Positions 5,165 through 38,953 of a stretch of 38,953 nt of DNA are shown here, piece by piece. Source of the stretch: a virus (taxonomy: Duplodnaviria; Caudoviricetes); the IMG/VR virus record IMGVR_UViG_3300016263_001165, positions 1 through 38,953 of that record; one strand, written 5' to 3'. The notes below the pieces were generated by a model. It had not been told where the DNA came from, did not search any database, and worked only from the letters and a program-made list of their open reading frames with translations. Positions within the stretch are counted from its first letter, which is position 1. Each line of letters begins with the position of its first letter. Both the position numbers and the translations under genes were made by a program.

Positions 5165-5988
5165 ACCTTGAACCTTACATAGACGACACCATCTGCCCCA
5201 TTTGTTTCAGTTGTAGAACCGCCGCCGCCACCCGAACCGTATGCGGTTGCGTTTGCGTTAGAACCGCCACCCGATGTGCCGCCGTTTCCACCCGTGCTAC
5301 TTCCTGCTGTGCCACCCGTAGAACTACCGCCACCACCACCGCCGCCGCAAACGAATGCGGAAGAACCGCCGATGAATAGCGAGCGGTCATAACCTGCGCC
5401 GCCATTGCCGCCAACACCGCTTGCGCCGTTAGAACCTGCGCCTGTTGCGCCGCCACCGCCGCCACCGCCCGTCGTGGTCAAACCGTTGCCGCCGTTGTTT
5501 CCTTGTGCGGCGAACAGGGCTAGTCCACCGTTCGACTGACCGCCACCGCCGCCGCCACCCGAAGCACCATAAAGACCGTCTTGCGTGCCGCCGCTTCTGC
5601 CGCCTTTGCCACCGCCACCTGCGAACGCATACGAGATGCCCGACGCAGAACCACGCCCACCCGTCACGCCTTTTGCACCAACGGTGACAGTTTCATTCGC
5701 ATCAAAGTAGAAAGTCTCAATGAGTAATCCACCTGCACCGCCACCGCCGCCTTTGTAAGAAGGGTCATTTACGATGTCGCCACCGCCACCACCGCCGACT
5801 AGCATCACATCAAACAGACCAGCCTGAGAAACCGTCAGCGTGCCTGAACTCGTGAAGGTGAGAAGCGTGTAGTTCTGACCGCCGACCGTGATGCTTGACG
5901 ATGTGCCGCCTGTTGCGACACCGTACACGGCGACAGGCAACAGGCTTGTGGTCTGCGATGAGACATAACCGAGATACGAACGAGTCAT
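5161..5988 (-). CDS. Glycine-rich tail fibre/receptor-binding-like protein
   Basis: Many GGGGG runs, with a TFT.SGTL.V ... VGGGGGG ... G.VYVRF framework. Confidence 0.75.
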   Translation of the reverse strand: MTRSYLGYVSSQTTSLLPVAVYGVATGGTSSSITVGGQNYTLLTFTSSGTLTVSQAGLFDVMLVGGGGGGDIVNDPSYKGGGGGAGGLLIETFYFDANETVTVGAKGVTGGRGSASGISYAFAGGGGKGGRSGGTQDGLYGASGGGGGGGQSNGGLALFAAQGNNGGNGLTTTGGGGGGGATGAGSNGASGVGGNGGAGYDRSLFIGGSSAFVCGGGGGGGSSTGGTAGSSTGGNGGTSGGGSNANATAYGSGGGGGSTTETNGADGVVYVRFKV

Positions 5989-9152: not shown

Positions 9153-9463
9153 TGGCAACCAAAGACCCTAGATTGGCGCGAGCAGGCGTATCAGGCTACA
9201 ACAAGCCGAAGCGTACACCGTCTCATCCAACCAAGTCACATATTGTTGTTGCCCGTTCAGGTGGACAAGTAAAAACAATTCGGTTCGGACAACAAGGTGT
9301 CCGAACCAACCAGACAGCGGGGCAAAGACAAGCCTTCAAGTCACGCCATCGCAAAAACATCAACAAGGGACCGATGTCGGCAGCGTATTGGGCTGACCGC
9401 GTAAAGTGGTCGCCGTCAAAGACGGCGCAGCCCCGTAATCAAAAGTGGGTCAAAGGCTCATAA
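9152..9463 (+). CDS. Highly basic conserved phage protein
   Basis: YNKPKRTP.HPTKSH, IRFGQQG, FKSRH, SAAYWA..VKW. Confidence 0.7.
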   Translation: MATKDPRLARAGVSGYNKPKRTPSHPTKSHIVVARSGGQVKTIRFGQQGVRTNQTAGQRQAFKSRHRKNINKGPMSAAYWADRVKWSPSKTAQPRNQKWVKGS

Positions 9464-9464
9464 A

Positions 9465-9480
9465 TGTGACGGCGGTCACA
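9465..9480. promoter_or_regulatory. CRP/GlxR-type palindrome TGTGA-N6-TCACA
   Basis: TGTGA CGGCGG TCACA, an exact consensus, at the start of a long intergenic region. Confidence 0.45.
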
Positions 9481-9908
9481 CCAGATTATAAAGTTTCACA
9501 ATCTGGTTCGGGTCCCATTTATAAATAACACACAGGCACGGGCGTGCCCCCCTACCCCCCCGTCCGCATTATGTGGCAGGTGCCCATAATCGGTGCCAAT
9601 TCTGCCCATAATCCGAGCCATAATCGGTGCCCCAAACATCCGTTCGCTTGACAAGTGTGCTATCACGCGCGCACACCCAAGCGTGCGGAGCGACGGCGAC
9701 GAACCGAACGGCGAAACGAACAAGTGTTCGCCCTAGTTTGCCAACGGTGGGCGTGGTACTGTGTGCGCATTATGTGTGTGTGGTACTGATGGGTGTGTGT
9801 GTGCGGAACTCCGTAGGAGTTGTGTTACAGTTGTGTTACAGTTTGGTCGGCTATTCGGTGTGCATTATGCGGGGGATAGCCGCGTGTGTGTGTATGTCAG
9901 TTGGAGAC

Positions 9909-9938
9909 TTGACTTGTGTAGCACCGATTCCCTACCTT
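9909..9938 (+). promoter_or_regulatory. Putative housekeeping-sigma early promoter
   Basis: TTGACT-N18-TACCTT immediately upstream of the structured region. Confidence 0.5.
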
Positions 9939-9941
9939 GTT

Positions 9942-10439
9942 TGCCATCGCCAATCGGTGGCGAGGTTGCCTCACCAAGTAGGCACTCACCGAATCTGGCG
10001 GGACTTGCCCGAATAGTGGCAGGGCTGAGTAAGCGGTAGCGATTACGCTCTGACTTGCCAGTGGCGTGAAGCAATCGGAGACACAGACGCTCCGTGAAGC
10101 GCTAGGCATCCCAAGTGGCTCAGGTCACGATACGGTCATACCGTGGGATGCAACGAGTACCGTGAGGCACCTGAATCGGTCACGGCTCGGAATGGGAGCG
10201 GTCACAATTCTGTAAGAATTGTGTCTAATCGGGAGTATGGTCTACTTGCCTACGGCAATCGTGGGTGGACTGAGTGTGACAACGGTTAGGCACAACCTAT
10301 GGGTTGTGGTCGTTGGGCTGACTCGGAGAACCCGCGTGGAGCGAGTCAGTTGCTAGGCGGAATGGCGCACACTTGCGAGTGCGCAGTCACCTCTTCGGGG
10401 GTGTCATCCGCTAGTCGTGGGGTGCGAGCCTCACGCTGA
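9942..10439 (+). ncRNA. Large structured non-coding RNA candidate (family not recognised)
   Basis: No credible ORF. Dense stems include GCATCCCA/TGGGATGC (10106-10113/10144-10151), CCGTGA/TCACGG, CACAATTCT/AGAATTGTG (10203-10223), CACAACC/GGTTGTG, CTGACTCG/CGAGTCAG, GCGCAC/GTGCGC and CGTGGGG-TGCGAG-CCTCACG. Confidence 0.6.
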
Positions 10440-10562
10440 GGTTGGTACGCGACCGTAATCGTTTACGATTACGGCAGTGCGTGAACCTTGTGCGTTATGC
10501 GTGGCACCACTGTAGGTGTCACCGCACGAGGTTCGGCGGTGCGATTCCGTCACCATCCGCTA
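10440..10562 (+). ncRNA. tRNA-like element 1 (acceptor plus T-arm mimic)
   Basis: GGTTGGT/ACCATCC acceptor-like stem with one mismatch, T-arm GGCGG-TGCGATT-CCGTC, 3' G-CTA, and two long internal hairpins in place of the D and anticodon arms. Confidence 0.5.
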
Positions 10563-10622
10563 CGATGCCATTCGGCATCGGAAACACACAAACGCCACCT
10601 ATGGTGGCAGATTGGAGCAATT

Positions 10623-10826
10623 ATGAGCAAGGCACCGCTGTACCCGAAGGGTACGCTCGTGAGATTCCGTGAAGGCACCTCTCGCGCAGGTGAGGTGTGG
10701 GTCGTGGAGTCCGACCACTGGTGTGGGAATCTGTACCTACACGAGATTGATGCTCGTAGCGGTCGCCCGATTGGTGGCATCGTCACCGAGGCTCGCGAAG
10801 TGGAACCCGTAGGGGTCAGGCTGTAA
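10623..10826 (+). CDS. Small hypothetical protein (SH3-like pattern)
   Basis: GGAG Shine-Dalgarno before ATG 10623; YPKGTLVRF...GEVWVV. Confidence 0.6.
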   Translation: MSKAPLYPKGTLVRFREGTSRAGEVWVVESDHWCGNLYLHEIDARSGRPIGGIVTEAREVEPVGVRL

Positions 10827-10843
10827 TCCCGTAGGGGATTACG

Positions 10844-10899
10844 GGACGGCAATAGCAACCCTTTAGGGTTGGGCAGTGCGATTCTGTCACCGTCCACTA
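10844..10899 (+). ncRNA. tRNA-like element 2 (minimal, ~55 nt)
   Basis: GGACGG/CCGTCC stem, CAACCC-TTTA-GGGTTG hairpin, T-arm GGCAG-TGCGATT-CTGTC, and 3' A-CTA. Confidence 0.55.
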
Positions 10900-10972
10900 T
10901 GCTACGCTAGTAGCAGTATCCGCTGACTTGGCAGTTTGCGGAGACAACACACACAGAACTGGAGGTTCTGAA

Positions 10973-12289
10973 ATGCCAGCAACACCAGCGCGTCAAATCC
11001 TCGGATTTGACCACAACACACAAATGGTGACCCTGAGGGGTCACCACGGTGGCACGGCTCAGCAACCGCTTTCGGCTTTGCCGAAGGTGGAGGTCATCGC
11101 CGTCGCCAAGTACCTCGGCATCCGATTCGTGGGCAAGAATCCGCTCGCGATGGACTTGGGCAAGATTCACGACGCAATCGTGAACCGCAAGCCGACTGTC
11201 GTTTATGAGGCGAAGCCTCAGACGATGCCGTCGCCGACTCCGTCGGCGCAACCGCAACCACAACCGTCTCCGAAGGAGGAGCCGATGCCACAACCACAGC
11301 AGAATCCGAAGCCCGAGGCGAAGCCTCGCCAGATGGGCTTGGAGGAGATGGTGCGCGTAATCGCGACGGAAGTCGTGGACAGCGCGCTGGAATCTCACGA
11401 GGCTGGAGTGGATGCCGATGAGGTTCGCGGAATCGTCAAGCCGATTATGGACGGTTTCCGTCACGAAGTGACGGAACTTGTCAAGTCGGTGAAGCCGATT
11501 GTGAACACAATCGTCGTCAAGGGTCGTGAACCGAAGCCGATGAACGGTGTCCAACACTTCGTGTTTCCCAAGGTTCTCGGTGCCGTCTCGCAGGGCGTGA
11601 ACTTGTGGCTGGTCGGTCCCGCGGGTACGGGCAAGTCCACCATCGGGGAGCAGGTCGCCGAGGCGTTGTCGTTGCCGTTCAGTGCAGTGAACTGCACCAG
11701 CACGATGACGGAGACTGCCCTGAAGGGCTACAACGATGCGAATGGCAACTATGTTGCCACGGAATTCCGTCGCATCTTTGAGGGTGGCGGTGTGTTCGTC
11801 TTTGACGAGGTGGACAACGCCAATCCGAATGTCCTCGGTGCCCTGAACAGCGCGCTTGCGAACGGGTTTATGGCGTTCGCAGACCGCAGGGTTCAGAAAC
11901 ACGCCGATTTCGTCGCCATCGCCACTGGCAACACCTACGGTAGCGGTGCCACGATGGAGTATGTCGGTCGCAACCCGATTGACGGTGCGACGATTGACCG
12001 ATTCGCACAATTGGTGGTACCAATTGACAGCAAGGTTGAGGATGCGATGCTCCAGTCCGTGGGATTGGATGCGCCGACTGCGACCAAGTGGGTCACTGCC
12101 GTCCGTAAGGCTCGGCAGAATGCCGAGAAATTCGGGCTGAAAGTCATCGTGTCGCCTCGTGCGACGCTGAACGGTGCCCGACTCGTCCGAAGCGGTGCGT
12201 TCACGATGACGGAGGCGTTTGACGCGACGGTCATCAAGGGTGCGAAGCCAGACCAAGCCGACAAACTCCGCGAGGGTGTCGCTCTCTGA
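10973..12289 (+). CDS. MoxR/CbbQ/CobS-type AAA+ ATPase
   Basis: Walker A GPAGTGKS, Walker B FVFDEVD, sensor ATGNT and arginine finger DRF. GGAGG Shine-Dalgarno before ATG 10973. Pro/Gln-rich linker. Confidence 0.9.
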   Translation: MPATPARQILGFDHNTQMVTLRGHHGGTAQQPLSALPKVEVIAVAKYLGIRFVGKNPLAMDLGKIHDAIVNRKPTVVYEAKPQTMPSPTPSAQPQPQPSPKEEPMPQPQQNPKPEAKPRQMGLEEMVRVIATEVVDSALESHEAGVDADEVRGIVKPIMDGFRHEVTELVKSVKPIVNTIVVKGREPKPMNGVQHFVFPKVLGAVSQGVNLWLVGPAGTGKSTIGEQVAEALSLPFSAVNCTSTMTETALKGYNDANGNYVATEFRRIFEGGGVFVFDEVDNANPNVLGALNSALANGFMAFADRRVQKHADFVAIATGNTYGSGATMEYVGRNPIDGATIDRFAQLVVPIDSKVEDAMLQSVGLDAPTATKWVTAVRKARQNAEKFGLKVIVSPRATLNGARLVRSGAFTMTEAFDATVIKGAKPDQADKLREGVAL

Positions 12290-12365: not shown

Positions 12366-13244
12366 ATGAAACTCACAACCGATGCGAAATCTTGCTACGC
12401 AAAGTCGCTGTGGATTGAGGAATTCGGTTCGCTCGCGGAAGCGTTGGAGTATGCGGGCGCGAACCCCAACCCCAAGTCGTCCGACCGTCCAAGCAACTAC
12501 TTCGGCGGTGACGATTGGGCTGGCAAGACGACCGACCTCGCGGACGCGGTTCGGCTCGGGCTACTCGGGTACGACGAAATTCGTCCCGAGGTGGAGCGGA
12601 TGTTCGCCGAGTTGGAATCCCAACTCGCCGAGCGTTTGGAGTTGGCGTTCCAGACTCGCTTTGATTACACAGGCTCCGTCGTGGATGTGGGTCGCTACCT
12701 GAGCGGTGAACCCGAATGTATGATTGACTTCGTGCCCGAGCCTTCGGCTCGTATGGGTCGGGTCGTCAAGGTCATCGTGAACGGAATCTGCTCGGCGAGC
12801 GTGGAATCCAAGCGCATAATCAAGCGCGGTGTCGTTGTGTGTGCGTTGATTGACGCGATACACAAACTCGGGATGGGCGTGGAGGTTTACGCCGAATTCC
12901 CGACCAACGATTATGCCATCAACAGCCCGAAAGGTAAGGTTCACACCTTTCTCGTGAAACTCCACTCGTCGGAGCAGTTGCTGGACATAAACAACCTGAT
13001 GTTCGGGTTGTGCCATCCGAGTATGCTTCGCCGAATCTCGTTCTCGGTGATGGAGCAAACCAAGTGGGAGCCTGCCAAGACGCTCATCAAGAGCGGGTAC
13101 GGGTATCCGTCCGCGTTGGAGATGGCTGAGCGTGTCGGTGCGGATGTGAGGTGCGAGATGCTTCAGTCTGGCAAGAGCGAATACGAGGGCAAGTCGCCAG
13201 TGGATTGGGTTATGTCCACGCTGAGCGGGTTGGGGGTAATCTGA
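12366..13244 (+). CDS. Putative vWA-like/CobT-like partner of the AAA+ ATPase
   Basis: Directly follows the MoxR-type ATPase; DVGRYLSGEPECM then VKVIVNGICSAS (degenerate MIDAS-like) and HPSMLRR. Confidence 0.6.
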   Translation: MKLTTDAKSCYAKSLWIEEFGSLAEALEYAGANPNPKSSDRPSNYFGGDDWAGKTTDLADAVRLGLLGYDEIRPEVERMFAELESQLAERLELAFQTRFDYTGSVVDVGRYLSGEPECMIDFVPEPSARMGRVVKVIVNGICSASVESKRIIKRGVVVCALIDAIHKLGMGVEVYAEFPTNDYAINSPKGKVHTFLVKLHSSEQLLDINNLMFGLCHPSMLRRISFSVMEQTKWEPAKTLIKSGYGYPSALEMAERVGADVRCEMLQSGKSEYEGKSPVDWVMSTLSGLGVI

Positions 13245-13247
13245 GCA

Positions 13248-13312
13248 GGACGAAACGCGGAGCGCAGTGTGTTGGCTCCGCGTCCACCAGTGAGACTGGT
13301 GCTGATGAGTCC
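13248..13312 (+). ncRNA. Hammerhead ribozyme, type II (copy 1)
   Basis: GGAC-GAAAC-GCGGAGC[loop]GCTCCGC-GTC^-CACCAG[TGAGA]CTGGTG-CTGATGA-GTCC. The conserved core is complete and all three stems pair. Predicted cleavage after 13284. Confidence 0.93.
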
Positions 13313-13343
13313 AGAACGACTTGCAACCGAGGAGGTTGGGATT

Positions 13344-13604
13344 ATGACAACGGCAAGAGAATGGATTGCAATTCTGCAATCGTTTGACCCGAACGAGGAA
13401 ATCATCGCGATGGTTTATAGTCGCGAACTGTTCGGCGACAAGAATCTGGTCGCACCAGATGGCACCGAGTATGACGAATGTCCCAAAGAAATTTGGGACA
13501 CGGTTGCGGAGGGACACGAATTGCGCGACTGGCTGTGCGAGCAGATACACGATGACATTCTGTCGGACTTGCAGGATGCGCTTGATGCCAAGGAGGCAAA
13601 GTGA
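13344..13604 (+). CDS. Small acidic hypothetical protein
   Basis: GAGGAGG Shine-Dalgarno before ATG 13344. Confidence 0.7.
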   Translation: MTTAREWIAILQSFDPNEEIIAMVYSRELFGDKNLVAPDGTEYDECPKEIWDTVAEGHELRDWLCEQIHDDILSDLQDALDAKEAK

Positions 13605-13873
13605 TGAAAGTGAGCAAAGCAATCAAGATGCTGAAAGAACTTCAGCCCGACGATGAAATCGTCGTCGCGTTCTGGGATGTGGACTGTTTCCACGGCTCCG
13701 TTCTCAGCGAGGACGGCGCGGAACTGCCCGTAATCCCGCGTAATGTGTGGAATGCGTACGCTTCGGCGTTTGAGTTCCGCGACCACATCCAAGAGATGTG
13801 CTGGGACGACATTCAGTGGGGGCTTCAGGATTATGTCACCAAGTTGGAACTAGAAGCGAAAGGGGGTGAATGA
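13604..13873 (+). CDS. Small acidic hypothetical protein, probable paralogue of the preceding gene
   Basis: AGGAGG Shine-Dalgarno and TGATG coupling; similar L..PxxEI pattern. Confidence 0.7.
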   Translation: MKVSKAIKMLKELQPDDEIVVAFWDVDCFHGSVLSEDGAELPVIPRNVWNAYASAFEFRDHIQEMCWDDIQWGLQDYVTKLELEAKGGE

Positions 13874-14166
13874 TTATGAGAATCATCAAGGAGTACCGCT
13901 ATGTCATCGCGGCTTCGCTGATGTGGCTCATCACGGTTGCGCTCGTTGTGGGTGTGGCTTGGATGGGCGCAGTGACACTGCTGGACGAAGTGGACGCGCT
14001 GAGTTTGGCGTTCGCGATTACGGCTCTGCTCATCTCGGTGGCTCCCGCGTGCTATGCGTGGCTGATGCTGTTGGATGAGGTGTGGGCTGTGCGCTACCAG
14101 CGATTGCTCAGGCAGAAGCGCAAGATAGAAGCGATGCGCTCACGGTTGGGTCGCCGACCTCGGTAA
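13870..14166 (+). CDS. Membrane protein (two TM helices, basic tail)
   Basis: Two long hydrophobic stretches and an Arg/Lys-rich C-terminus. Confidence 0.7.
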   Translation: MIMRIIKEYRYVIAASLMWLITVALVVGVAWMGAVTLLDEVDALSLAFAITALLISVAPACYAWLMLLDEVWAVRYQRLLRQKRKIEAMRSRLGRRPR

Positions 14167-14198
14167 GGTGACCGTCCACTATTCGTGTCACACCGACC

Positions 14199-14207
14199 TG
14201 CTATAGT
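14199..14207 (+). promoter_or_regulatory. Extended -10 element TGnTATAGT
   Basis: TGCTATAGT, 7 nt upstream of hammerhead 2. Confidence 0.45.
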
Positions 14208-14214
14208 GGACTGA

Positions 14215-14281
14215 GGACGAAACGCTCAGGGTTCTCCTTTCCCCTGAGCGTCCACCAGTAAATGCTGGTGCTGATGAGTCC
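14215..14281 (+). ncRNA. Hammerhead ribozyme, type II (copy 2)
   Basis: GGAC-GAAAC-GCTCAGGG[loop]CCCTGAGC-GTC^-CACCAG[TAAATG]CTGGTG-CTGATGA-GTCC. Predicted cleavage after 14252. Confidence 0.93.
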
Positions 14282-14312
14282 AGAAGCACTCAACTAAACA
14301 CTGGAGGTGTTT

Positions 14313-14945
14313 ATGTTTGGAATGACCACCGCACTCCGCATCTATGCGGATGCCAGCAAAGAACCCGAGACGATTCTGCTCGGGGGCACTACCACGGAGC
14401 AGGTCGCGGAAATCCGCGAAGCCGTAGGAGGGCACTTTGATGCCATCCGACGGGGCGCATCCGACGAATCGGGCAAACACAAGCCGTTCGTGATGGTGGG
14501 CTATGTCCACGACGAGGGCAGAATCCTGAACCTGCCCCTGAACCCTGTGGCGAGTATGCTGTTTGAGGAGAGCCTGTTCGGGGATGTGTTGCTGGTGAAC
14601 GGCACCAATCCCGAGACTGGCGATTATGACGGCGAGACCCACTCGTTGCCTGTCGCATTCTGCGAGTACATCATCAAGGGAATGTACCCTGCTGTCCAGC
14701 AGTCCGTACATTTCTCCAAGTTGCTCGCGACCGCCGTGGCTTACGCCAAGCAGTCTGGCACTTTGACCGAGGACGAGTACAACAAGATTTACTCGTTTAT
14801 GTCGGCGAAGTACGAGGATGCGGAGAAGGGCGGTGCGCCTGCCGAGTCCGTGGAATCGCTTCCACAAGAGATTCGCGAACTGATGGCGAAGTGTGTCGCC
14901 GATTTGATTACGCATCTCGGGGATGACCCGAAAGGGGGTGAGTGA
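14313..14945 (+). CDS. DUF3846-like phage protein with helical C-terminal extension
   Basis: AVGGHFD, VHDEG...LPLNPVAS, GDVLLV; GGAGG Shine-Dalgarno. Confidence 0.65.
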   Translation: MFGMTTALRIYADASKEPETILLGGTTTEQVAEIREAVGGHFDAIRRGASDESGKHKPFVMVGYVHDEGRILNLPLNPVASMLFEESLFGDVLLVNGTNPETGDYDGETHSLPVAFCEYIIKGMYPAVQQSVHFSKLLATAVAYAKQSGTLTEDEYNKIYSFMSAKYEDAEKGGAPAESVESLPQEIRELMAKCVADLITHLGDDPKGGE

Positions 14946-36558: not shown

Positions 36559-37350
36559 TTAGTTGGCACCGAGGGAACGCTTGGCGGCTTCCCACGCTTC
36601 ACGAACATTTGTGATAGGTGTCGCGCCCTCGCTGGTCGCGGATGCACTCGGATTAGAGCCGCCAGACACCACTGCCGCCTGTCGCTTTGCGGCGACAACA
36701 GCGGCTTCAGTATCCTGCTTCTTTTTCTGTGCTTCTGCTTCCAAACGCTGACGGTCCATCATCTTGTCAAACATCATCTGCTTGTAGGTGCCTTCAAGGT
36801 CTGTAGAGCCTAGGCGAAGTGCGGTGTTCACCACTTCGCCAACATTGAAATCGCCGTACTTCGCTTGCAAACCAGCAATTTCCCGCTCAATCTGCTGCTG
36901 AGACTGGTATTCCTCAAAGGAAGCAACTCTCTGCTCCATCTGTCGGAACTTTTGGTCAATCGGGTCAAGTGACTCTTCAGCCACAGACTCGGCAACCATA
37001 TCAGCCGCCTGCTGCCGAGTCACCCCATAATGCCTAGCAAGTAGGTCAATGGTTGCCTCGGGATTACGCTCCAACGCCGACTGAATGGCTACAGCAAATT
37101 CATTCTGCTGCCGTTGCTCACTCAATTCCTGCGTTTTCCGAGTGTAATCAGCCTGCCGCTGATAACCGCTCAACGCTTCAGAAAGCGGAACTTGCAGTTC
37201 CTCACCATCCACCTTGACAGGTACGACATAATTGGCGTACTGGTCAATTGGCAGAACTGGTGTTTCTGCGCTTGTACTCGCTGTCTCTGCTACTTCGGTT
37301 GCACCCGCTTGGGTGTCCACATTTGACTGCGCCGCGATTTCATCGCTCAT
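36559..37350 (-). CDS. Capsid scaffolding protein
   Basis: VKVDGEE..V.L.E..GYQRQADYTRKTQEL motif; acidic coiled coil; between portal and capsid. Confidence 0.8.
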   Translation of the reverse strand: MSDEIAAQSNVDTQAGATEVAETASTSAETPVLPIDQYANYVVPVKVDGEELQVPLSEALSGYQRQADYTRKTQELSEQRQQNEFAVAIQSALERNPEATIDLLARHYGVTRQQAADMVAESVAEESLDPIDQKFRQMEQRVASFEEYQSQQQIEREIAGLQAKYGDFNVGEVVNTALRLGSTDLEGTYKQMMFDKMMDRQRLEAEAQKKKQDTEAAVVAAKRQAAVVSGGSNPSASATSEGATPITNVREAWEAAKRSLGAN

Positions 37351-38953
37351 ATTTATTCTCCCGAGTCCTAAATGGTTGCTCTACCATAGAACTAGGCTGT
37401 TCCCTAAGAGGTCATCCCCTGCTCAAAACCAGCCATACCAGCCTCAGCCTGCTGAGGCACGGTCGGATTCACGGCGGGCGGAATCGGGACACCGCCCCCC
37501 ATACCCAGTTCAGCAGCCTGCCCCGCGGGTGGTTGAGGGGGCGGAGCAGACTGCATAAACTGTTCAGGTGACTTCACACCAAAACCGAACTGCAACACAT
37601 AGGCAGCCAGTTTTGCCATATCCACCACTCCAGCAGCCGCAAACGGACTCATAGCATCCACAATCTGAAGGGCGGTCTGGCGGCGGAACGACTCGTTTAC
37701 GGGTTGGGTGGAGCCGCCGACCACCTCAAAGTCAAAGTCGCCAGCCAAATAGTCGCGGTCATATTTGACCCACACGGGGTCACCGTTCTTGGAAATTATG
37801 CGGGCAACTTGTTCGCCCGTCATAAACTGTTGAGCCAACTTCAGCAAGCGGCGACCGACCTCAGCCATAGCCCGCTCAACCGTAGCCAACTTGTCAGCGG
37901 TGCGAGCATTGGCGGCATCCTGAAGAAGTGCCGACTCGGTGGCAGTGCGGCGAATCTCCGATACGCCGCCACGCATAAACTCAGAAACACCCGAAACTCG
38001 GTCAATGTCAGCCGTAATCAGATTGGATTGATTATAGAAATCCGACGGACTGACCACGGCGGGCATTGGGGCGATGACATTCCCCAAAGCGTCGTCACCG
38101 ACCACGGGAACCATCACATTGTCGTCCTCAGATTCCAACGCGGTGCGACCCAACTGGTCAAATGCCGACTCTTTGTACAACCATTTGCGCGCAAACCGTT
38201 TACGGTGATTCATCATTTGGGTACGAGTCTCGTTGAGTTCTTTCTGCAACGGCTCAATAGCCTCCAGTTCACCCAGCGGATAAAACTGGTCGGGGACATC
38301 ATAATCCCGCAACATAACAAACGGATGCCCGAACGCATACGGCATCTGCATCGGCTTCACAAGGAATCCGTCTCCACCCTCCGCAAACACCGACATCGTA
38401 CGGCTCTTGATGTCGTAAAACTCCCAAATTTCCGCAAACCCTTGTTCTTTGTCACGAATTTTGCGAACAGAGGGGTCATCCGCGTAGCGGCTGACCGCCA
38501 TAGCAGACACCGCTTCGCGGGCAGCCTTGTTGTACCGTTTGTCGGTACGAACCTCGGATAGCGGACGGCGGACACGCTGCGCAATCCAACGCATATCCTT
38601 GACCGAGGTGGCATCTGGGTCCACGAACACATCGTAACACGACACCCGTTCAGCAAACGGAGCATCCTCCAAAACAACGGTATGCGGCGTTACCGCATTG
38701 TCAGGGTTCGGCTCGGAGTCATCCTCGCCATCCAAACCGACCTCTTCCTCCACATACCTGTAGCCAACTTTGACCCAACCGTGACCAAAAATGACCATAT
38801 CCTTGACAGCAGCCTTTAGTTCTTCTTTGATGTTCTGTTGCCGCCACCAATAGTTCACCACAGCCTCAGCAATGACCGCCTGTGCAGCCTGCTCGGGTTT
38901 GGTGGCATTCACCGTAATCTTTGGATAATTTACCGACACCGCAGGCACAATCA
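37116..38953. repeat. Terminal direct repeat / circular overlap, copy 2
   Basis: Collinear with 1-1838. Confidence 0.95.
37404..38953 (-). CDS. Portal protein, second allele (5' end truncated by window edge)
   Basis: Nearly identical protein to 289-2031, with five amino-acid differences seen. Confidence 0.85.
   Translation of the reverse strand, partial: IVPAVSVNYPKITVNATKPEQAAQAVIAEAVVNYWWRQQNIKEELKAAVKDMVIFGHGWVKVGYRYVEEEVGLDGEDDSEPNPDNAVTPHTVVLEDAPFAERVSCYDVFVDPDATSVKDMRWIAQRVRRPLSEVRTDKRYNKAAREAVSAMAVSRYADDPSVRKIRDKEQGFAEIWEFYDIKSRTMSVFAEGGDGFLVKPMQMPYAFGHPFVMLRDYDVPDQFYPLGELEAIEPLQKELNETRTQMMNHRKRFARKWLYKESAFDQLGRTALESEDDNVMVPVVGDDALGNVIAPMPAVVSPSDFYNQSNLITADIDRVSGVSEFMRGGVSEIRRTATESALLQDAANARTADKLATVERAMAEVGRRLLKLAQQFMTGEQVARIISKNGDPVWVKYDRDYLAGDFDFEVVGGSTQPVNESFRRQTALQIVDAMSPFAAAGVVDMAKLAAYVLQFGFGVKSPEQFMQSAPPPQPPAGQAAELGMGGGVPIPPAVNPTVPQQAEAGMAGFEQGMTS

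Follow-up and report, generated by a model that had tools for sequence, protein, structure and literature searches.

Type II hammerhead ribozymes in the putative early operon of a phage and their possible role in shaping messenger ends

Two hammerhead ribozymes of type II punctuate the putative early operon of a phage whose assembled DNA of 38,953 nt (the window) is analysed here as a whole. What self-cleaving ribozymes do for the phages and prophages that carry them is an open question (PMC6765202). We propose, with a probability of roughly 0.6, that these hammerheads cut the early transcript in cis into hairpin-ended, longer-lived messages.

The phage and its early region

The window covers a complete phage genome of about 37.1 kb with a circular overlap of its ends. 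Positions 1-1838 are repeated at 37116-38953 with 94.7% identity and the portal gene is present twice; most likely, the circular assembly was closed via two strains, rather than the overlap being a true duplication. The minus strand is occupied by the genes for portal, terminase, capsid and internal virion proteins. From about 10.6 kb onward, the plus strand encodes an AAA_5 ATPase, a DUF7192 protein, small orphans, a DUF3846 protein, exonuclease, DnaB, primase and RusA, and from this gene order we infer that the ribozyme-bearing plus-strand region is the early operon. The head of this strand is formed by about 1.5 kb of mainly non-coding DNA with many hairpins (9460-10970), for which Rfam gives no match. 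Sequencing runs containing the stretch are mostly of freshwater DNA, no integrase was found among the 47 window proteins scanned, and the phage is apparently a lytic one from freshwater. As for the host, matches of the capsid and DUF7192 proteins to cultured phages stay below 40% and are scattered, and the bacterial-genome loci with the exact hammerhead pattern, four in number, belong to unrelated taxa.

The start codon of the DUF7192 gene was placed by the ribosome-binding site in the sequence. In near strains g1 is missing and copy 1 is kept (joint 13314 to 13604; 4/4 runs from four studies). A short hairpin frequently contains the Shine-Dalgarno sequence (SD) in its loop or one of its arms, as in the leaders of the genes at 12366 and 14313 and in many relatives, with or without a hammerhead upstream.

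Table 1. Coordinates of the features of the early region in the window
Feature	Position	Strand	Remarks
AAA_5 ATPase gene	10973-12289	+	Pfam PF07728
DUF7192 gene	12366..13244	+	after ATPase gene, before copy 1; Pfam PF23822, E 1.4e-38
Hammerhead 1, type II	13247..13312	+	includes conserved A before stem II (13248-13312 without it); predicted cut 13284/13285
Copy 1 stem II	13248-13251 / 13309-13312	+	GGAC / GTCC
Copy 1 GAAAC	13252-13256	+
Copy 1 stem III	13257-13263 / 13275-13281	+
Copy 1 GTC	13282-13284	+
Copy 1 stem I	13285-13290 / 13296-13301	+
Copy 1 CTGATGA	13302-13308	+
Copy 1 alternative hairpin	13307-13311 with 13318-13322	+	predicted; 6-nt loop; exclusive with stem II
SD behind copy 1	13331..13335	+	GGAGG, from sequence
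g1	13344..13604	+	86-aa orphan; paralogue of g2, 31% identity, blastp E 8e-10
g2	13604..13873	+	89-aa orphan; no family match
g3	13876..14166	+	96-aa hydrophobic orphan; last gene of the block between both predicted cuts
9-bp inverted repeat around promoter	14174-14182 with 14203-14211	+	predicted hairpin in read-through RNA
Extended -10-like element	14199..14207	+	TGnTATAGT; predicted +1 at A14214
Hammerhead 2, type II	14214..14281	+	14215-14281 without leading A; predicted cut 14252/14253
Copy 2 stem II	14215-14218 / 14278-14281	+	GGAC / GTCC
Copy 2 stem III	14224-14231 / 14242-14249	+
Copy 2 GTC	14250-14252	+
Copy 2 stem I	14253-14258 / 14265-14270	+
Copy 2 CTGATGA	14271-14277	+
Copy 2 alternative hairpin	14276-14279 with 14288-14291	+	predicted; 4 bp
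SD behind copy 2	14303..14307	+	GGAGG, from sequence
DUF3846 gene	14313..14945	+	210 aa; downstream of copy 2; Pfam PF12957, E 1.3e-6

Two type II hammerheads

An earlier note on this DNA had claimed two complete type II hammerheads, and sequence inspection together with a structural descriptor recovered every detail of that description (Table 1). Both cores are canonical (CUGAUGA, GAAAC, GUC). Each copy possesses the features that define the class, namely CUGANGA, GAAA, an A15.1-U16.1 pair and an NUH triplet, and the type II permutation follows from stems I and III being closed by loops and stem II being open, as judged from folds and covariation. We therefore read both copies as intact on the level of their letters. 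Their described position was found as well: copy 1 starts 3 nt past a stop codon (TGA at 13242-13244), and both lie on the sense strand about 60 nt before a gene, the distance from cut to ATG being 59 nt (ATG at 13344) and 60 nt (14313). No third or half copy was found in the window with a model made from these copies, the next score being 12 bits.

Folded alone, each copy adopts the three-way junction as its minimum free energy (MFE) structure (z -4.0 and -4.5; 0/200 shuffles as good). Few extra flanking bases are sufficient for stem II to be mis-paired in predicted folds, and in longer contexts its probability in the window copies is low (0.09 and 0.12, ViennaRNA), so that folding may compete. 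The bare core pattern alone is not significant (4 matches, 1.8 +/- 1.4 in shuffles); the motif owes its significance to the stems and their covariation.

The Rfam search that the note had recommended agrees with it on the class and leaves both copies below threshold: RF02276 (Hammerhead_II) is the top match, with 27.4 and 24.8 bits, and neither copy reaches its gathering cut-off of 37 bits; at gathering scores, Rfam gave no match anywhere in the window. The same permutation and core are shared with RF02276, the best Rfam match of both copies, which differs by its longer stem II and by a pseudoknot; the window copies have a 4-bp stem II and lack the pseudoknot. The helix between loop I and the 3´ tail amounts to 4 pairs (with G-U pairs) and 2 pairs in the window copies, and throughout 208 copies such a pseudoknot is not enriched (a helix of at least 4 bp in 29%, compared with 25% for shuffled tails). 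The 7th base past the cut is U in 201 of the 208 and the base before stem II is A in 202; outside the scan pattern the figures are 70/77 and 71/77. Both conserved bases would fit the U7-A tertiary contact that is discussed in PMC11875169. The subfamily is widespread, non-pseudoknotted, phage-borne and outside the pseudoknotted Rfam subfamily. Because it falls below the Rfam threshold, standard annotation misses members, and two copies in another phage (L047) do exceed the RF02276 cut-off. The window gave no Rfam match to glmS or to riboswitches.

Covariation and spread across viruses

Compensatory variation between the two stems III, which the note had pointed out, extends to covariation across 14 aligned copies, those of the window and of four relatives found through DUF7192. 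The four relatives carry 2, 2, 4 and 4 copies at matching slots, and of the six loci, the two that are farthest removed have none. All 263 of 263 stem cells are paired in this alignment, compared with 27-47% in slid registers, and 13 of the 19 pairs show two-sided changes, a level reached by 0/500 shuffles. Stem II is invariant in the 14 copies and variable in the wider set. Such a pattern of changes argues that the hammerhead structure is real and under selection.

The exact pattern matches 117 viral loci and only 4 loci in bacterial genomes. When the descriptor was applied to these 117 together with the earlier loci, 171 hammerheads were obtained, 163 of them distinct. An SD with ATG occurs no more than 55 nt past stem II in 122 of the 163 distinct copies, compared with 13% for random places and 1.9% for the antisense strand. 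Hammerheads cluster: the window has two, close relatives have as many as 4, and one 7.7-kb locus of another phage has as many as 11. Among other phages, L047, L044, L012 and L039 harbor arrays of 11, 8, 8 and 7 type II copies, almost one per small gene. Hammerheads of types I and III were not found in 1.92 Mb of fetched loci, using a descriptor that had no positive control.

The identity of hammerhead-flanked genes varies between loci. Of 112 downstream proteins scanned, the majority has no family; those with a name include DUF3846, ATPase, helicases, two weak ArdA matches, one ArdC-N, one T7 gp5.9-like protein and one superinfection-exclusion lipoprotein. Genes of this kind are too scarce behind hammerheads for the arrays to be named anti-defence islands.

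Varying gene content behind the ribozymes, extra genes that come with a hammerhead of their own (L004, L005, L143) and the existence of mosaic copies are what one would expect if the motifs were kept chiefly as repeated expression modules for gene gain and loss by recombination, with cleavage being secondary. We regard this as quite unlikely. Genes are indeed shuffled by way of the repeats, but recombination needs identity, not pairing, yet the stems covary and the catalytic bases are invariant, and covariation requires that the fold has a function; moreover, one cassette boundary lies in the spacer of the ribosome-binding site and not in the ribozyme (L273 compared with L129).

Hammerhead-cut ends are of the kind used by RNA ligases. 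An ArdA-like gene lies between two hammerheads in L143, L009 and L253 and is missing in L150, and the crossover between L150 and L143 falls in a 10-nt stretch spanning the cut. One could imagine from this that the segment released by two cuts is closed into an RNA circle by ligation, or that a mobile RNA cassette was inserted at the cut site. This seems highly unlikely to us: discordant segment pairs do not cluster at the cut and their commonest patterns break upstream of stem III, and break points are spread over several conserved blocks instead of bounding retrozyme-like units at the cut. Neither reverse transcriptase nor RNA ligase was detected among the 47 window proteins scanned, two long ones of which have no family, and the tail hairpin described below would oppose re-ligation. 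Spliced and circular products were sought by Perreault et al., and none were found (PMC3088659).

Presence and loss within the clade

Independently of the RNA, 160 further loci were collected by protein alignment (the best 80 of 98 and the best 80 of 132 matches); a single-protein DUF3846 search had returned no relatives and the alignment-based search succeeded. In the loci found by way of proteins, each of the 119 descriptor hits (redundant ones counted) lies in sense orientation, and 45 distinct copies have their cut 48-63 nt ahead of the start codon. Deduplicated loci that span DUF7192 to DUF3846 number 75. One to three hammerheads are present in 35 of them; the other 40 scored none between the two genes, including two that were mis-scored (L272 with a 66-bit match and L198 with a degenerate 37-bit match). 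A quick tree of the 75 loci requires at least 7 changes between presence and absence, or about five after the two mis-scores are corrected by hand. Since about half of the clade does without hammerheads, the ribozymes are dispensable.

Two loci nested among carriers, L206 and L207, have lost the core and stem I; the hairpin of stem III remains behind the stop codon of DUF7192 and is lengthened to about 16 bp. Behind the same DUF3846 promoter, they possess an unstructured leader. A long hairpin at the junction was found in 25 of 39 hammerhead-less relatives, compared with 17/39 in a coding control and 29% in shuffles, so the excess of long hairpins in hammerhead-less lineages is modest. Searches for other ribozyme classes yielded only tRNAs at the matching slots of 14 loci without a canonical copy, and no such class in 18 further loci.

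Several loci carry a core-variant hammerhead before DUF3846 (L204 at 5826-5892; also L192, L199, L201, L203 and L257), which is degenerate in L194, L197 and L198. The L204-type variant has U opposite U at position one of stem II, U15.2-A16.2 and an AUA triplet, and its stem I still covaries. A 75-bit tmRNA match lies at 10047-10128 of L006, a distant relative without hammerheads, and tRNA genes are present in L139, L187 and L256.

Promoter and predicted start at copy 2

Copy 2 indeed stands just past an extended -10-like element, TGnTATAGT at 14199-14207, as had been noticed from the sequence; a consensus scan found no -35 match. With the spacing usual for sigma-70, which we take to apply here, the first A of copy 2 (A14214) would be the +1 position. 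At the DUF3846 slot of relatives, a TAnnnT box ends 6-8 nt before the first A of the ribozyme in 11 of 12, 8 times at exactly 7 nt; these 12 are the relatives with DUF3846 at least 42% identical, a line drawn after seeing the data, and the 11 share ancestry. The box precedes the ribozyme A at this spacing in 0/13 more distant copies of the DUF3846 slot and in 1/40 of other slots; the predicted +1 placement is confined to a single subclade. A promoter before copy 1 was considered too and rejected, since the spacing is not conserved outside the DUF3846 slot (the same 1 in 40).

For a transcript starting at A14214, the hammerhead is the MFE fold, also when the RNA extends to 14300. In read-through RNA, the inverted repeat around the promoter is predicted to hide a competing strand, and the same hammerhead fold results (z -5.0). 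The repeat could be either an RNA hairpin or an operator. It covaries, with 7-11 pairs in 9 of 13 relatives that have this arrangement, matching slots being those of L002, L004, L205 and L213. Copies of this 9-mer are also found ahead of likely promoters elsewhere (10892 and 17354).

In a transcript that begins with the ribozyme there is no gene ahead of it to be severed; what cleavage would alter is the 5´ end. This would fit the conversion of a 5´-triphosphate start into a 5´-OH hairpin end. Copy 2 would also cut read-through RNA, so its placement at the predicted +1 is an argument and not a proof.

A hairpin in the 3´ tail

In many copies, a tail stretch six bases past the third base of stem II is complementary to G8-A9 together with bases one to three of stem II. 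Of 193 distinct tails, 64 form five such pairs at loops of 4-8 nt (2.1% on average and 7.3% at most in shuffled tails). The pairing peaks at a loop of 6 (24%), and loops of at least 8 nt account for no more than 1%. Within the clade, five pairs occur in 42/72 and at least four in 61/72; outside it, five pairs occur in 31/136. Where stem II is altered (40 tails), five pairs are kept in 8 and missing in 32, the 8 representing three independent changes in which the tail suits the stem II it belongs to more than the common form. For both window copies, short 3´ products are predicted to fold into stem I and the tail hairpin, whose probability is 0.10 and 0.73 once the ribosome-binding region is included. 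That the tail frees the SD was considered and rejected (predicted accessibility 0.52 with the tail, 0.58 without).

We regard this register-specific tail as a lead, a candidate release switch that, once the RNA is cut, may base-pair with core and stem II; shared ancestry may contribute to its conservation. Among titles and abstract beginnings, no description of a natural type II tail hairpin or of product release by it was found.

The same pairing could act earlier, the tail competing with stem II before the cut and setting the ratio of cut to uncut RNA. When the tail is replaced in silico, stem II pairing rises from 0.12 to 0.83 in copy 2, and its clade median for 5-bp tails from 0.05 to 0.20. 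Such partial or regulated cleavage is very unlikely in our opinion, as stem II can presumably form before the tail is transcribed, the fold model does not contain tertiary contacts, and the active fold is still the MFE for A14214 to 14300.

Proposed processing of the early transcript

That the early mRNA processes itself was suggested in the earlier note. It stays the best reading, with regard to the sense strand, the fixed distance and the predicted +1 at copy 2, although the idea is not new: Perreault et al. (2011) proposed the cutting of long phage transcripts into gene-length mRNAs (PMC3088659). A protective effect of the 5´-OH end, the other part of that suggestion, has a divided record. 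In engineered E. coli constructs, RNA levels went up with an active hammerhead at the 5´ end (PMC3664830), but RNase J1 degrades the 5´-OH product of the glmS ribozyme in Bacillus (PMC3997798).

According to the processing model, copies 1 and 2 would cleave in cis right after synthesis, past 13284 and 14252. The upstream message would then end in stem III as a 3´ hairpin with a 2´,3´-cyclic phosphate, and the downstream message would open with stem I as a blunt 5´-OH hairpin. Joined by the 4 bp of stem II alone, the products would part. By the cut in copy 1, g1-g2-g3 would be detached from the ATPase-DUF7192 message. Copy 2 would form the end of the g1-g2-g3 block and, in addition, trim a 39-nt triphosphate leader off the transcript of the DUF3846 promoter, so that read-through and promoter-made RNA would share one 5´ end. 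In the weakest step of the model, the 3´ tail would bind to G8-A9 and to the strand of stem II that has become free, making the cut hard to reverse. The benefit would consist of longer-lived, independently translated early messages, likely a refinement of fitness that is not essential. A hammerhead at the 5´ end of a message is familiar from RiboJ, an engineered insulator.

The opposite effect is conceivable as well. The cut might act as a timer, the 5´-OH end being an entry for a 5´ exonuclease of RNase J type and early messages being cleared fast. The fate of the glmS product in Bacillus (PMC3997798) speaks for it, and the genes are early by position, small and probably needed briefly. We consider this unlikely, because the downstream product opens with a hairpin of 6-7 bp at its first base and has a strong SD, a ligand-binding extension is not seen, and relatives that lack ribozymes have leaders, structured or plain, in front of these genes.

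A more detailed version of the processing model, to which we attach little confidence as a whole, is that of a natural two-state maker of mRNA ends. Transcription would start on the A of the tertiary contact, the triphosphate leader would be exchanged for a 5´-OH hairpin, and the tail would strip off the product and lock the cut. If true, it would provide a concrete function and an undescribed release switch for many orphan hammerheads of phage early regions.

Relation to known systems

Both the class and its permutation are known from print, as are clustering in phages and the idea of processing (PMC3088659), and the supplementary alignments of that paper may already hold members of the subfamily. 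Clustered prophage hammerheads described there cleave in vitro and in E. coli. They resemble the present ones in several respects: several sense-strand type II copies surround short variable gene blocks, ardA-type neighbours occur (here in L009 and L086, weak Pfam hits below cut-off), and the same transcript-cutting role was proposed. The differences are that the copies studied here lack the loop I/3´-tail pseudoknot, have a 4-bp stem II and a putative U7-A contact, and reside in an apparently lytic freshwater phage instead of prophages. Sections 6 and 11 of that paper mention neither a hammerhead at a predicted +1 nor the tail hairpin.

HHphage of haloviruses HF1/HF2 likewise heads an early transcript just before a start codon, and there the mapped 5´ end lies within 3 nt of the hammerhead cut (PMC3088659). 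HHphage, with a variant core, is found 13 nt before the start; the window cores are canonical and lie about 30 nt before it. The engineered 5P-HHR (PMC3664830) also has a hammerhead behind a promoter, which removes the leader and gives a 5´-OH, hairpin-led message. It is synthetic; the window arrangement is natural and of type II, its effect being putative. With the glmS ribozyme (PMC3997798, PMC6765202), self-cleavage in the 5´ leader and the resulting 5´-OH message are shared, but glmS has another fold, depends on a metabolite and is destabilising, and there is no sign of a ligand here.

What we add is the placement of copy 2 at the predicted +1, the stem III remnant and the tail hairpin, for none of which a paper was found among titles and abstract beginnings. 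The clade offers clean natural contrasts: presence and absence of the ribozyme at the same promoter (L208 compared with L207), the remnant in which stem III alone is kept, and a ribozyme located at a predicted start. They make the readings "stabilise" and "destroy" testable with simple reporters. The gain is limited by the arrangement being known and the phage uncultured. A deposited freshwater podovirus (MW202803.1, L289) has an unannotated 34-bit match to the hammerhead model at 1883-1947, upstream of the ATPase region.
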